DNA of 64,000 nucleotides, taken from Alphaproteobacteria bacterium (GTDB taxonomy: Bacteria > Pseudomonadota > Alphaproteobacteria > Bin95). The stretch is taken from contig CBDBGH010000003.1 of assembly GCA_965205265.1 (NCBI GenBank), forward strand, positions 1,632,001-1,696,000. Direction: 5' to 3'. Numbering within the stretch: position 1 is the first letter of the stretch; each line of letters opens with the position of its first letter. This document shows positions 1 to 62,620 of the stretch, piece by piece. A program made the position numbers and the translations under genes. The notes under the pieces are model-generated. The model searched no databases. It was not told the DNA's origin and was given only the letters and a program-made list of their open reading frames with translations.

Positions 1-433
1 ATACCCGGACTTGTTCCGGGTATCTCTCTCAAGCGGCTCTGCCGGGCGGCCGTATGGATGCCCGGAACAAGTCCGGGCATGACGATATGGGGGGCGGGCA
101 TGACGGGAACAGGGCTAGGCCGCCGGGCGTCGATCCGAGTCCCGATCCCGCCGAACCCCTCGAAACCCGGTTGAATCCAGGCCATGCGCTCTGTCCACAA
201 AATCCAAACCGGACAGCAATGGACTTGTTCCGGGTATCTCTCTCAAGCGGCTCTGCCGGGCGGCCGTATGAATGCCCGGAACAAGTCCGGGCATGACGAT
301 ATGGGGCGGGCATGACGGGGACAGGGCCGGGCCGCCGGGCGTCGATCCGAGTCCCGATCCTGCCGAACCCCTCGAAACCCGCTTGAATCCAAGCCATGCG
401 TTCTGTCCACCAAATCTAAGCCGGACAGCAGTG
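1..433. mobile_element. Two right halves of the REP-targeting MITE in tandem (probably nested; cut by the window edge)
   Basis: Units of 214 and 212 bp start at GGACTTGTTC (7, 221, 433). TIRs at 204-221 (CCAAACCGGACAGCAATG) and 416-433 (CTAAGCCGGACAGCAGTG). Near-identical to 21480-21699 and 38283-38503. Confidence 0.85.
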
Positions 434-510
434 GACTTGTTCCGGGCATCTTCCGCCACAGCTTCCGTCGGACGGCCGCATGGATACCCGGAACAAGTCC
501 GGGTATGACG
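434..510. repeat. Remainder of the target REP doublet
   Basis: GACTTGTTCCGGGCATC...GGATACCCGGAACAAGTCCGGGTATGACG, nearly identical to 38504-38580. Confidence 0.8.
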
Positions 511-19737: not shown

Positions 19738-21300
19738 TCAGGGCATCACGCCGTGGCGCAGGGTCGGGGCCGGGGCCTCTGTGCGGCGCAGTTCGGCGCG
19801 GTCGAGGGCTTCGATGAGGCGCGGGCGCGTTTCCGCCGGGTCGATCACATCGTCGATCTTCATGGCTTCCGCCGCCGGCCAGGCCCCGCAGAGGCGCCCG
19901 TATTCCCGGACCAGGCGCTCGTAGAGCGCGTCGGGGTCCTCCGCGCTTTCGAGTTCCGCCTTGTAGGCCGCCTTTATGCCGCTCTCCAGCGGAATGGCGT
20001 TGAAGTCCGCCGTCGGCCAGGCGAGCACTGCCGACTGCCCGGCGCCATAGCCGCCCATCGCCGCAGCCCCGTAGCCGAAGGCCTTATGCAGCACTACGGT
20101 CACCAGCGGCGTGTTGGCGAAGGCGAAGCTGCTGGCGACCGCCATGCCGACCCTGAGCGCCCCCTCGCGTTCCGACTTCGGCCCCGTCATCACGCCCGGC
20201 GTGTCGGTCAGGAAGACGACCGGCAGGTGGTAGGCCGCGGCGAGGTCGATGAAGCGGCGGAGCTTGTGCCCGGCCGCGGCCGTGATCGCGCCCGCCATCA
20301 CCTTGGGCTGGTTCGCCGCAACCGCCACCGCCCGGCCCTCGAGGCGCGCGAAGCCGGTAATCATCATGCGGGCATAGTCCGGCTTCAGCTCGAAGAAGCT
20401 CTCCCGGTCGAAGATCGCCGCAATCGCCTTCTTCATGTCGTAAGGACGCCGCCGGTTCTCCGGGATGAGGTTACGCAGAACTTCCCCTGCCCCGTCGGGC
20501 GCCGGTTCCGCCTCCGCCCCCGGCGGCCAGGCCCAGGCATTCGCCGGCATGAAGGAGAGGTAGCGCTTCAGCTGCCGGACGGCGTCCGCCTCGTCCTCGG
20601 CGGCATTGTCGGCCACGCCCGAGACGCGGCAATGCACCTCCCAGCCGCCGAGTTCCTCCTTGGAGACGCGCTCGCCCGTGCCCATCGCCACCAGCGGCGG
20701 CCCGCCGGCGGCCAGCATGCCCTCCCCCTTCACCATGACGATGAATTCCATCATCGACGCCAGAAGGGAGCTGTCCCCGGCCGTCGGGCCCAGCACCGCC
20801 GCGATCGTCGGCGCCGTGCCGGAGAGCCGCGCCACATCCATGAAATGGTGCATCGGCGCGAGGCCCTCGCCGATATATTCGTCCGTGCGCGCGCCCGCCC
20901 CGTCGAACAGCCAGACCAGCGGCACCCGGTCGCGCAGCGCCAGCTCGATCATCCGGTGCTTCTTCGCGAAGTTCACCAGCCCGAGCGAGCCGCCGAGCAC
21001 GGTGAAATCTTCGGCGACCACGCCGGCAATGCGCCCGTCGATCCGCCCGAAGCCGGTCACGACGCCGTCGGCCGGAGTGTGCTTGTCCTTCACCGGCGTC
21101 ACGCGCGTCGGCGCGTGCCTCGCAAGCCCGCCGATCTCCGTGAAGCTGCCCGCATCCATGAGCATCGCGACCCGCTCGCGCGCCGTCTGCTTGCCGGCCC
21201 GGCGCTGGCGGGCGACCTTCGCCTCGCCGCCATGCCCTTCGGCTACGGCCCGGCGGCGCGCGAGTTCGCCCAGCGTCCCTTCCGCGAAGTCTCTGGTCAT
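19738..21300 (-). CDS. Acyl-CoA carboxylase carboxyltransferase (PccB-like)
   Basis: TARERV, DFTVLGGS, ANQP, DTPG, DDVIDPAETR. Confidence 0.92.
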   Translation of the reverse strand: MTRDFAEGTLGELARRRAVAEGHGGEAKVARQRRAGKQTARERVAMLMDAGSFTEIGGLARHAPTRVTPVKDKHTPADGVVTGFGRIDGRIAGVVAEDFTVLGGSLGLVNFAKKHRMIELALRDRVPLVWLFDGAGARTDEYIGEGLAPMHHFMDVARLSGTAPTIAAVLGPTAGDSSLLASMMEFIVMVKGEGMLAAGGPPLVAMGTGERVSKEELGGWEVHCRVSGVADNAAEDEADAVRQLKRYLSFMPANAWAWPPGAEAEPAPDGAGEVLRNLIPENRRRPYDMKKAIAAIFDRESFFELKPDYARMMITGFARLEGRAVAVAANQPKVMAGAITAAAGHKLRRFIDLAAAYHLPVVFLTDTPGVMTGPKSEREGALRVGMAVASSFAFANTPLVTVVLHKAFGYGAAAMGGYGAGQSAVLAWPTADFNAIPLESGIKAAYKAELESAEDPDALYERLVREYGRLCGAWPAAEAMKIDDVIDPAETRPRLIEALDRAELRRTEAPAPTLRHGVMP

Positions 21301-21337
21301 TCGCGTTGCCCCTTTTCCGTCATGCCCGGACTTGTTC

Positions 21338-21699
21338 CATTGCTGTCCGGTTTAGCCATTGGGCGAGGCTGAACGGGAGTCCGCCGGGGGTTTCGGGGGC
21401 GCGCGGCGTCTGCGATCCGCCCCTTGCCCGTGAGGCCCGAATGCCCCCTTCGACAGGCTCAGGGCAGGCTCTTTCGTCATACCCGGACTTGTTCCGGGTA
21501 TCTCTCTCAAGCGGCTCCACCGGGCGGCCGTATGGATGCCCGGAACAAGTCCGGGCATGACGATATGGGGGGCGGGCATGACGGGAACAGGGCCGGGCCG
21601 CCGGGCGTCGATCCGAGTCCCGATCCCGCCGAACCCCTCGAAACCCAGTTGAATCCAAGCCATACGCTCTGTCCACCAAATCTAAGCCGGACAGCAGTG
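21338..21699. mobile_element. Complete MITE (362 bp) inserted in a REP palindrome
   Basis: TIRs CATTGCTGTCCGGTTTAG and CTAAGCCGGACAGCAGTG; direct repeat GACTTGTTC at 21329-21337 and 21700-21708; no transposase. Confidence 0.9.
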
Positions 21700-21764
21700 G
21701 ACTTGTTCCGGGCATGACGATAGAGCGCGGCCGAGCCGGTGAGGTCGTGCGGCGGCCTCCGGAC

Positions 21765-22310
21765 TCAGATGACGCCCCTCAGCTTGAGTTTGAGACCGAC
21801 CACTGCGTAGCGGTCGAGGCCGGTGATCTCCGCAATCTCGGAGAACGGCAGGCGCGTTTCGTTGAGCAGCACGGTCGCATGCTGGACGGGCTCCAGCCGC
21901 CGCCGGCTTCGCCACACGAAACCCTGCCCCGCCCGTCTGGCAGGAGGTTCTTCCTCTCGATCCAACCCCCGCCGGAGCGCGTCTTCCCAGGCGGCCCGGA
22001 AGCGGGCGCGGTCCTCGTCCGCCCGCCTTTCGCTTTCCCGGAAGGCATGCGCCCGCGCCGCCGCGCGCGCCCTCCGCATCCGCTCGAACGGGCTTTCCTC
22101 CCGGACGGGTTCCGGCTCGCCGCCCCCCCGCGCCGCTTCGGCGAGCGACATGCCGTGGCGCGCCGCCAGCCGCCGGGCCGCCGCCAGCGCCGCCTCGCGC
22201 TCGCCGTCATAGGAACTGCCGGCCGCCAGCGCCAGCAGGCTCCTGAAACGCGTCCGCTCCGCCTCTGCAAACCCGGTCTGGATCGAACCTCTCCCAAGGC
22301 GCGAAAGCAC
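21765..22310 (-). CDS. DUF2786-like domain protein
   Basis: RSLLALAAGSSYDGEREAALAAARRLAARHGM; possible HTH at C-terminus; start uncertain. Confidence 0.7.
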   Translation of the reverse strand: MLSRLGRGSIQTGFAEAERTRFRSLLALAAGSSYDGEREAALAAARRLAARHGMSLAEAARGGGEPEPVREESPFERMRRARAAARAHAFRESERRADEDRARFRAAWEDALRRGLDREEEPPARRAGQGFVWRSRRRLEPVQHATVLLNETRLPFSEIAEITGLDRYAVVGLKLKLRGVI

Positions 22311-26069: not shown

Positions 26070-26097
26070 CGGGCCGGCCCGGCAGGCCCCCATAATC

Positions 26098-26179
26098 GTC
26101 ATGCCCGGACTTGTTCCGGGCATCCATTTCCGCCACCGCGATGGTCCCGAGAGATGCCCGGAACAAGTCCGGGCATGAC
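26098..26179. repeat. Intact REP doublet (inverted pair)
   Basis: GTCATGCCCGGACTTGTTCCGGGCATC...GATGCCCGGAACAAGTCCGGGCATGAC. Confidence 0.9.
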
Positions 26180-26282
26180 GGGAAAGGAGTGAAGACGCCC
26201 GGTTTCGCCTCGGCCGAACACTTCAAAACCCGGTCGAATCCCGGCTAGGCTGACGGCCGCCCCCCCGACGGACCCGTCTTTC

Positions 26283-38117: not shown

Positions 38118-38503
38118 CATTGCTGTCCGGTTTAGCCATTGGGCGAGGCTGAACGGGAGTCCGCCGGGGGTTTCGGGCGCGCGCGGCGTCTGCGATCCGC
38201 CCCTTGCCCGTGAGGCCCGAATGCCCCCTTCGACAGGCTCAGGGCAGGCTCCTTCGACAGGCTCAGGGCAGACTCTTTGGTCATACCCGGACTTGTTCCG
38301 GGTATCTCTCTCAAGCGGCTCCACCGGGCGGCCGTATGGATGCCCGGAACAAGTCCGGGCATGACGATATGGGGGGCGGGCATGACGGGAACAGGGCCGG
38401 GCCGCCGGGCGTCGATCCGAGTCCCGATCCCGCCGAACCCCTCGAAACCCGCTTGAATCCAAGCCATGCGCTCTGTCCACCAAATCTAAGCCGGACAGCA
38501 GTG
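38118..38503. mobile_element. Complete MITE (386 bp) inserted in a REP doublet
   Basis: Same TIRs; flanks GATTTGTTC (38109-38117) and GACTTGTTC (38504-38512); internal 24-bp duplication. Confidence 0.88.
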
Positions 38504-38750
38504 GACTTGTTCCGGGTATCTCCCGCCACAGCTTCCGTCGGACGGCCGCATGGATACCCGGAACAAGTCCGGGCATGACGGAAGAGCCTGTCGAAGGGGA
38601 CGTTCAGGCATGATCGAAAGGGAGCGGATCGGAGACGCCGCGCGGTTTTCCCGCCCGCCGATTTCTGCGCTTTTGTGGGTAAATCGCTCGCTCCGGGCGG
38701 GCGAATCCGGTTAGGACCCGGCTGACCGACAGTCAGGGAGTCCGGGTTCG

Positions 38751-62325: not shown

Positions 62326-62492
62326 CCGCATAGCTGCGCTGCGCCTGCACGCTAAAATGGGACTCTGCGGCGAGCCGGCATAACGCCGGGCCGGAAGGGG
62401 CTATGCGAGCGTGTGAAGAGATCGGAGTGGATATCTGTCGTATCGAGACGGGGCGAAGACGGACAGGCACTGTCACCCTGGACCCCGCTATC

Positions 62493-62620
62493 GCCACCCC
62501 GGACTTGTTCCGGGGTCCATCCCTGACCGTTTGCGCCTGCCGCAGCCGTTTGAACGGGACCGGACCGCCTGCGTGTGCCGAGAAAGCCGGAGCTGGACCC
62601 CGGATCAAGTCCGGGGTGAC
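62493..62620. repeat. Variant REP doublet
   Basis: GCCACCCCGGACTTGTTCCGGGGTCCA...TGGACCCCGGATCAAGTCCGGGGTGAC. Confidence 0.8.

Follow-up and report, generated by a model that had tools for sequence, protein, structure and literature searches.

A miniature IS4-type element that inserts into REP palindromes and carries REP palindromes of its own

The stretch of DNA analysed here (the window, 64,000 nucleotides of an alphaproteobacterial genome; G000:C3:1632001-1696000 in an assembly of 5.70 Mb and three contigs) contains at positions 21338-21699 a 362-bp sequence with terminal inverted repeats (TIRs) that separates the two halves of a repetitive extragenic palindrome (REP). The locus raises the question of what kind of element splits a REP in this way, where it came from, and how this is connected with the recurrence of one 9-mer, GACTTGTTC, of which the window has 17 copies where 0.21 would be expected, a count that none of 100 shuffles reached. 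[quoted passage not shown]

A MITE in the loop of a REP hairpin

The element is bounded by 18-bp TIRs that match at 16 of 18 positions, the left one (CATTGCTGTCCGGTTTAG) at 21338-21355 on the forward strand and the right one (the reverse complement of CTAAGCCGGACAGCAGTG) at 21682-21699. It is preceded by the left half of the target REP (21318-21337, forward strand, CGTCATGCCCGGACTTGTTC), of which the last nine nucleotides (21329-21337) are one copy of the target-site duplication GACTTGTTC, and followed by the right half (21700-21719, forward strand, GACTTGTTCCGGGCATGACG), which begins with the second, exact copy (21700-21708). Together, the flanks make up a single symmetric REP hairpin whose loop, CTTGT, is asymmetric. 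The length, TIRs, duplication and split hairpin had all been described in an earlier, sequence-only reading of this DNA, and the sequence of the window confirms each of them. The open reading frames (ORFs) that overlap the element are at most 131 aa long, and it has no transposase gene. Bounded by short TIRs and flanked by a target-site duplication, it is a genuine MITE.

The genome was searched for both TIRs with up to three mismatches, and an end was considered supported when its arm sequence was common to at least one other end. All 93 matches lie on the chromosome contig, C3. REP loops adjoin 80 of the 85 supported ends, as the 13-mer CCCGGACTTGTTC at 51 ends and its loop-inverted form CCCGGAACAAGTC at 29; the five exceptions are the two ends of a copy at C3:636222-636584 and single ends at 2533097, 2540411 and 3611080. 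Eight matches were unsupported: three are chance-like (C3:1620299, 1990284 and 2171367), four lie at REP loops and one at a different REP. The sequence-only reading had proposed that a REP palindrome is the target and had suggested a genome-wide search for the TIR and its flanks as a check, which bears this out. In the terms of Tobes and Pareja (2006), this is the "type 1 association" of REP-targeting ISs.

Stack pairing of the ends yielded 35 pairs, mostly 307-386 bp long, the others being three outer members of nested sets, one truncated copy (168 bp) and one 488-bp IS remnant. A perfect 9-bp direct duplication flanks 23 of the pairs, and four more have one with a single mismatch. In all, we estimate that the genome holds roughly 35-45 copies of the MITE. 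Three are 98-100% identical to one another, while others fall to about 73%, a spread that suggests both old and fairly recent bursts, which may have occurred before the loss of the IS or through an enzyme no longer present.

The REP halves might instead be part of the element. The mobile unit would then measure about 402 bp, its TIRs would be 38 nt long (21318-21355 and 21682-21719), there would be no duplication, and REPs would be products of the element and not its targets. The 38-nt inverted arms that include the REP halves are indeed 82% complementary. However, the asymmetric loop is directly repeated, with GACTTGTTC on both sides, in 27 of the 35 pairs, whereas a TIR would give its reverse complement; moreover, copies of both the MITE and the IS at non-REP sites have no REP halves, and 300 intact REPs exist without the element. 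This alternative is extremely unlikely. The copy at C3:636222-636584 (363 bp, doublet included) lies at such a non-REP site and has its own perfect 9-bp duplication, CGCCGGCCG; therefore, the whole 363-bp unit moves as one piece and generates a 9-bp duplication at whatever site it enters.

The 300 intact REP cores (217 of them exact) include 115 doublets of uniform order and inverted orientation, with a modal spacing of 57 bp; the reversed-sequence control gave one match, and no cores were found on the two small contigs. The sequence CGTCAT is present on one side only in 261 of the 300, while seven intact REPs elsewhere in the genome are tagged on both sides like the target at 21338-21699. As a GC-rich stem-loop with a mostly one-sided tag that occurs as dimers, the target is a CGTC-tagged REP. 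According to Di Nocera et al. (2013, PMC3733652), such REPs predominate in Alphaproteobacteria, are often dimeric and "apparently lack a dedicated transposase". Along C3, the REP counts per 500 kb are 40, 27, 52, 39, 27, 34, 22, 28, 15, 6 and 10. There are no MITE ends between about 4.10 and 5.42 Mb on C3 or on the 193-kb and 43-kb contigs, and an IS1634-family element is common in the REP-poor part of C3.

Within the window, right ends at 221, 433, 21699 and 38503 are followed directly by GACTTGTTC, at 222, 434, 21700 and 38504, in agreement with the earlier observation that four right ends abut the same 9-mer. Left ends are present at 21338 and at 38118, the latter adjoining GATTTGTTC, with one mismatch. 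The interval 38118-38503 (forward strand) is a second complete copy of 386 bp, inserted in the first REP of a doublet; it is 92% identical to the copy at 21338-21699, and its flanking 9-mers, GATTTGTTC and GACTTGTTC, agree at eight of nine positions. A short tandem duplication (cttcgacaggctcagggcag...) at 38226-38273, immediately before the first internal REP, distinguishes the 386-bp copy from the 362-bp one. An empty REP doublet, which had been reported near 26098, is present uninterrupted at 26097-26180 (forward strand).

A second type of REP, with stems CACCCCGG.../...CCGGGGTGAC, forms a doublet at 62489-62620 of the window, the first hairpin of which has the same loop 9-mer. A related half site, ...CACCCCGGCC(C/T)CC(A/G)AGC, lies beside the MITE end at C3:61135 and also, in two sister species (L014 and L017), beside copies of the MITE; the transposase therefore accepts other palindromes too.

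Nesting and the REP cargo

The internal REP doublet of the MITE (21474-21563, forward strand) consists of two inverted REP hairpins, with 29-nt arms that are 93% complementary. Searched against Rfam, the doublet gave microRNA-like hairpin matches only, all below threshold (at most 39 bits against gathering cut-offs of 90-100). According to the sequence-only reading, the element had captured its own target, and the start of the window shows that this target is used. The 9-mers there recur at a spacing of 212-214 bp, which resembles a tandem array; yet just outside the window, on its upstream side, are two left arms (C3:1631703 and C3:1631860), whose partners are the right ends at 433 and 221, respectively. 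The resulting elements are an inner copy of 362 bp (G000:C3:1631860-1632221, with its 3' part at 1-221 of the window, forward strand) and an outer one of 731 bp (G000:C3:1631703-1632433), both with perfect GACTTGTTC duplications. The outer copy's internal doublet has been entered by the inner copy exactly at the loop of its first REP. What is left of the outer MITE (222-433, forward strand) comprises the duplicated 9-mer, the right half of REP1, the linker, REP2, the right arm and the right TIR. Next, at 434-510 (forward strand), comes the target of the outer MITE, in the form of the duplicated 9-mer and what remains of the REP doublet.

The same arrangement, a left-type end 157-158 bp inside another left arm at internal REP1, is found at six places, the window-start pair included; the others are C3:840709/840867, 2362994/2362836, 2533097/2533255, 3218561/3218719 and 3968892/3969050. 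A pair of right arms 157 bp apart (C3:912577/912734) marks an insertion into internal REP2. Since copies are nested in MITE-borne doublets, the cargo REPs are real targets, and it is because the MITE carries a REP doublet that its copies nest and the REP spreads.

These clusters could also be read as a BIME-like (bacterial interspersed mosaic element) array, in which unequal recombination or tandem duplication multiplied units of REP plus linker, with the TIRs as a part of the repeat unit. The 212-214-bp period of the 9-mers in 1-510 and again in 38290-38570 is what such an array would look like, as are the alternating REP orientation and the two constant spacings, a short one of 57 bp and a long one of 157 bp. 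However, the 214-bp period is accounted for by nesting, once the two upstream left arms are paired with 221 and 433; in addition, the complete unit is also found outside REPs, flanked there by a 9-bp duplication of its own, and in a sister species a transposase gene lies between these same ends (see below). We therefore regard an origin by recombination or duplication alone as very unlikely.

By context, 26 of the 115 doublets lie inside complete MITEs, 16 have one adjacent MITE arm (together 42 of 115 in a MITE context), and 73 are free. Among the free doublets, 30 are continued on one or both sides by 25 bp or more of MITE interior, 42 have no such continuation, and one had no spanning match. 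The cargo also differs between versions of the MITE. In sister species, MITEs of 305 and 317 bp hold the same doublet as here (CCCGGACTTGTTCCGGG), whereas others of 231, 256 and 364 bp (L022, L023 and L025, in G002 and G007) hold a different palindrome, of the CCCCTCTCCCCGC...GCGGGGAGAGG type. It follows that the interior is a variable cargo space, which has been occupied by REPs repeatedly. The CCCCTCTCCCCGC...GCGGGGAGAGG palindrome is of one type with the Sinorhizobium meliloti REP next to the IS copy on pSymB described below. These observations demonstrate that the MITE is a vehicle for the spread of REPs.

The cargo, like many of the targets, is an inverted REP doublet, which is the architecture of a REPIN. 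A REPIN-like mode of movement, by a REP-associated tyrosine transposase (RAYT) of the HUH/Y1 type with the internal doublet as the active part, is nevertheless exceedingly improbable. The Y1_Tnp domain (PF01797) gave no match in this genome and was matched in one of the 17 genus genomes searched (this one included), while the control search was positive in six of 14 reference genomes, and TIRs with a fixed 9-bp duplication are marks of a DDE transposase. That CGTC-tagged REPs apparently have no dedicated transposase (PMC3733652) points the same way. Thus, although an inverted REP doublet is common to both systems, the cognate Y1 gene of a REPIN/RAYT system was not detected here.

At C3:687902-689777, two left-arm MITE halves, each in a REP loop, point towards one another with 1.9 kb between them, and may represent either a composite structure or a pair of truncated copies. 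The interval was also considered as a possible parent element and rejected: its 406-aa ORF is, by eye, a putative squalene/phytoene synthase and not a transposase.

The parent IS and its preference for palindrome axes

A MITE with IS4-like ends implies a full-length IS with the same ends, and the earlier suggestion to look for one was followed by running the TIR pattern, ungapped, over 17 genus genomes, this genome included. Matches were found in 12 of the 16 relatives, against none for the pattern read backwards, and in one relative (G010) they were paired 1270 bp apart. G010 has four copies of a 1270-bp IS; at three loci the elements are identical, and the fourth agrees with them in its ends and length and encodes a transposase of 100% identity. 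The TIR is CACTGCTGTCCGGTTTA at both ends. All duplications are 9 bp: GAACAAGTC, in REP loops, was found twice, and CAGCGACGG and CGCCGTGGC are in non-REP sites, the copy with CAGCGACGG interrupting a long ORF that is, by eye, a putative ammonium transporter gene.

The IS contains a single ORF of 384 aa (P0001), which matches the Pfam domains DUF4372 (70.9 bits) and DDE_Tnp_1 (PF01609, 106.3 bits) and the NCBIfam model NF033592, "IS4 family transposase" (243.9 bits, cut-off 115). The signature of IS4 transposases around the catalytic glutamate is Y-x2-R-x3-E-x6-K, and YKRRWAVELFFRWVK in P0001 fits it. IS4-family elements have TIRs starting with 5'-CA and target duplications of about 9-12 bp, as is the case for the TIR CACTGCTGTCCGGTTTA and the 9-bp duplications found here. 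A second IS4-family transposase, with at least eight copies on G010:C2 (e.g., 397166-398155), is 39% identical to P0001.

The MITE and the 1270-bp IS have TIR, duplication length and target in common. The right arm of the MITE (21600-21699, reverse strand) aligns over about 90 nt with the left end of the IS, from the TIR through the sequence that precedes the transposase start and as far as the ribosome-binding region. The left TIR is the counterpart of the right end of the IS; beyond the TIR, similarity on this side is weak. When P0001 was compared with the MITE copies by tblastn, no match was found inside any of them. The sequence-only reading had described the element as an internal-deletion derivative of an IS4-type IS. 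The IS4 type and the IS4-derived ends are borne out by the G010 element, but a simple deletion is not: the interior is REP-containing DNA without IS sequence, and the MITE is therefore a derivative of IS ends with foreign, REP-bearing cargo.

The closest named relative of P0001 is the transposase of ISRel1 from p42a of Rhizobium etli CFN42 ("IS4-like element ISRel1 family transposase"), with 70.6% identity over 384 aa. The right end of ISRel1 has the same TIR core, ...CCGGACAGCAGTG, and adjoins a REP-like half site; the left end of the p42a copy was looked for and not found. ISRel1 differs from the present element in being a full-length IS, and its host belongs to a different order of Alphaproteobacteria. 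An open-literature search retrieved no paper that is about ISRel1, judged by title and abstract opening; its target preference may nonetheless be in print.

A wider set of relatives of P0001 (146 confirmed, of which 79 loci with 56-75% identity were kept) comes from many Alphaproteobacteria, including metagenome-assembled genomes of Rhodospirillales and others, Rhizobium, Aliidongia, Bradyrhizobium, Methylosinus and Mesorhizobium, with a few records labelled otherwise. Both IS ends could be located at 57 of the 79 loci, the other 22 being dropped because of a contig end or a missing TIR. These ISs are 1270-1345 bp long with TIR cores CAC[T/G]GCTGTCCGG, and 39 of the 57 have a 9-bp duplication with no more than one mismatch. 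Around the central 5 nt of the duplication, the flanking 11 positions pair at 8 or more in 32 of the 39; of 20,000 sites drawn at random from this genome, 0.41% reach the same palindromy score. The palindromes differ between hosts (...GCCCGGGCTTGTCCCGGGC..., ...TCCTTGGGCTTGACCCGAGGA... and ...GGCCGCCTCAAGGGCGGCC..., for example), whereas the geometry of 2 bp per stem and a 5-nt loop is constant, which argues for recognition centred on the dyad. REP targeting is a trait of the transposase clade and not of the MITE in particular.

This agrees with the survey of Tobes and Pareja (PMC1525189), in which REPs are targets for members of five IS families, so that the premise of the sequence-only reading, that some ISs insert specifically into REPs, had a precedent within the IS4 family itself: every copy of ISRm22 of S. 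meliloti is in a REP, at the palindrome axis. On pSymB, we found a 1299-bp IS copy with a transposase 39.6% identical to P0001, the TIR CAGGGCTGTCCGG and a 9-bp duplication, CCGCCTGCG, centred on the axis of its host REP (CCCTCTCCCCGC...GCGGGGAGAGGG), which differs from the REP here. The record is unannotated at this place; from the table in PMC1525189, the copy is probably ISRm22, although that source gives 6-bp direct repeats where the pSymB copy has 9 bp. ISRm22 is an autonomous IS, and the passages of PMC1525189 consulted describe no MITE derivative.

From these features, movement of the MITE can be pictured as follows. An IS4-family DDE transposase of the Tn5/Tn10 type, supplied in trans, would bind both 18-bp TIRs and excise the element by cut-and-paste chemistry. 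Joining to the target by cuts staggered by 9 bp would give rise to the 9-bp duplication when the staggered cuts are repaired. The preferred target would be the 9-bp window on the dyad of a CGTC-tagged REP hairpin, made up of 2 bp of each stem and the 5-nt loop, and the two-fold symmetric transposase complex may read the symmetric, GC-rich palindrome as double-stranded DNA. Each insertion would destroy one REP and bring in two new ones.

Orphan copies and the spread of REPs

Several results weigh against this interpretation. A tblastn search of this genome with P0001 detected no cognate transposase that is intact, and current mobility here is therefore unsupported. Two fragments only were detected, corresponding to residues 84-159 (65% identity, one TAG codon) and 282-336 (69%), both in a 488-bp TIR-bounded remnant at C3:1981754-1982241 that is lodged in a degenerate REP. 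At E ≤ 1e-30, 14 of the 17 genus genomes, this one among them, lack a detectable transposase, although draft assemblies may hide copies. Secondly, eight of the 35 end pairs, including the IS remnant, have reverse-complementary flanking 9-mers (GACTTGTTC vs GAACAAGTC). They may have arisen when copies lying in REPs of opposite orientation, for instance the two REPs of a doublet, recombined, or through mispairing of ends in nested clusters. They resemble the imperfect direct repeats of some ISRm22 copies, ascribed to recombination by the authors of PMC1525189. Thirdly, no filled and empty pair was found at the orthologous site: the MITE is absent in all 10 genus relatives compared, of which eight are also without a REP.

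The element lies between a carboxyl-transferase gene (19741-21300, reverse strand), the start of which faces it, and a gene for a DUF2786-domain protein (21768-22310, reverse strand). In the eight relatives without a REP, the corresponding spacer is short, about 70 bp in most of them. There is a degenerate REP doublet at the orthologous place in G006 and a REP doublet in a longer spacer in G011. Contigs from four public sequencing runs end in the repeat; two runs reach both TIRs, and no contig extends across an empty site.

The decay of the parent IS to a 488-bp remnant makes the MITEs orphans in this genome. Within the genus, the transposase is intact in G010 only (four copies). It is in pieces in G011 (71-83% identity), where all IS ends detected at four scanned loci are beside a REP loop, and G005 has a single weak match (39% identity, residues 134-334, E = 4.5e-33). 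Since TIR matches occur in 12 of 16 relatives, against these few transposases, the MITE ends are far more widespread than the enzyme.

This raises the possibility that a resident, unrelated transposase, rather than an ISRel1-like enzyme, moved the MITE here. Three copies are nearly identical, suggesting fairly recent movement although the cognate enzyme was not found, and one candidate, a 55-copy IS1634-family element, has a transposase distantly related to P0001 (weak tblastn matches, 27% identity). The PF01609 profile matched 82 times in this genome, and the three multicopy ISs of this type with determinable ends (1920, 1704 and 1472 bp) were compared with the MITE. Their termini, CTCCTGACTTCG..., TCAACCTAAATCC... 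and CCTACCGTATGC..., are unrelated to its TIR, which excludes them as parents and argues equally against cross-mobilisation. Long, variable target duplications are a hallmark of IS1634. The resident element (1920 bp; 551-aa transposase, NF033559 341.3 bits, cut-off 100; all 55 copies in C3 and outside the window, e.g., C3:126628-128547) is flanked by perfect direct repeats of 0-573 bp, at least 33 bp in 43 of the 55 copies, and not by repeats of 9 bp. We consider cross-mobilisation highly improbable, and trans mobilisation by the ISRel1-like enzyme most likely. One IS1634-family copy sits inside a MITE at C3:2360072-2362314, where two copies of the same MITE end are 2242 bp apart, indicating a duplication of about 322 bp.

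MIC231 is an IS4-family MITE derived from IS231. Like the present element, it shares TIRs and duplication length with its parent and is a multicopy element devoid of a transposase gene; it is also mobilised in trans, as the present element probably was. To our knowledge, MITEs of this type have not been described as REP-homing or as carrying their own target. The same combination of features characterises Nezha, which the passages of PMC3184786 consulted do not describe as REP-homing or target-carrying either.

Tn5/IS50 and Tn10/IS10 of the IS4 family resemble the parent IS in their 9-bp duplication and in a DDE transposase with Y-x2-R-x3-E-x6-K. However, the N-terminal domain of the parent transposase is DUF4372, unlike that of Tn5 and Tn10, and these transposons show a weak consensus preference, in contrast to the near-exclusive use of one palindromic repeat here. 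The IS110 group is RNA-guided. Its members ISPpu9, ISPpu10 and ISPa11, together with IS1397 and ISKpn1 of the IS3 family, are REP-specific ISs (PMC1525189, PMC3184786), and they resemble the MITE in inserting into REP hairpins and coming to lie between two REP fragments. They differ in their chemistry and in duplications that are of other kinds or absent, and none, as far as these sources go, carries its target. For Tn5, a preference for symmetric 9-bp targets is cited in PMC1525189.

REP-targeting ISs, among them an IS4-family member, are thus already known, as are MITEs derived from IS4-type elements. In the open-access literature searched, we found no account of a MITE that both targets and carries REPs. 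New here are the cargo that is itself a target, the nesting, and the link to a class of REPs without a dedicated transposase. On the practical side, nested arrays mimic tandem repeats, and short-read assemblies break at these sites. For the question of how a DDE transposase chooses REP hairpins, the present clade offers a tractable system, being kin to the structurally well-known Tn5 and Tn10 enzymes; the REP stems of its hosts vary, providing natural variation with which to test what is recognised.

Because the MITE carries the repeat that it targets, REPs of the CGTC type can spread with it. We suggest more tentatively, as an idea that we consider possible but on balance doubtful, that the CGTC-tagged REPs of this lineage may multiply largely as MITE cargo, and that the ISRel1/ISRm22-like clade would read the geometry of the hairpin and not a fixed sequence. 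If so, element and target would form a self-reinforcing loop, in which each insertion removes one target and adds two, and an IS4 clade would be tracking REPs of differing sequence from host to host.

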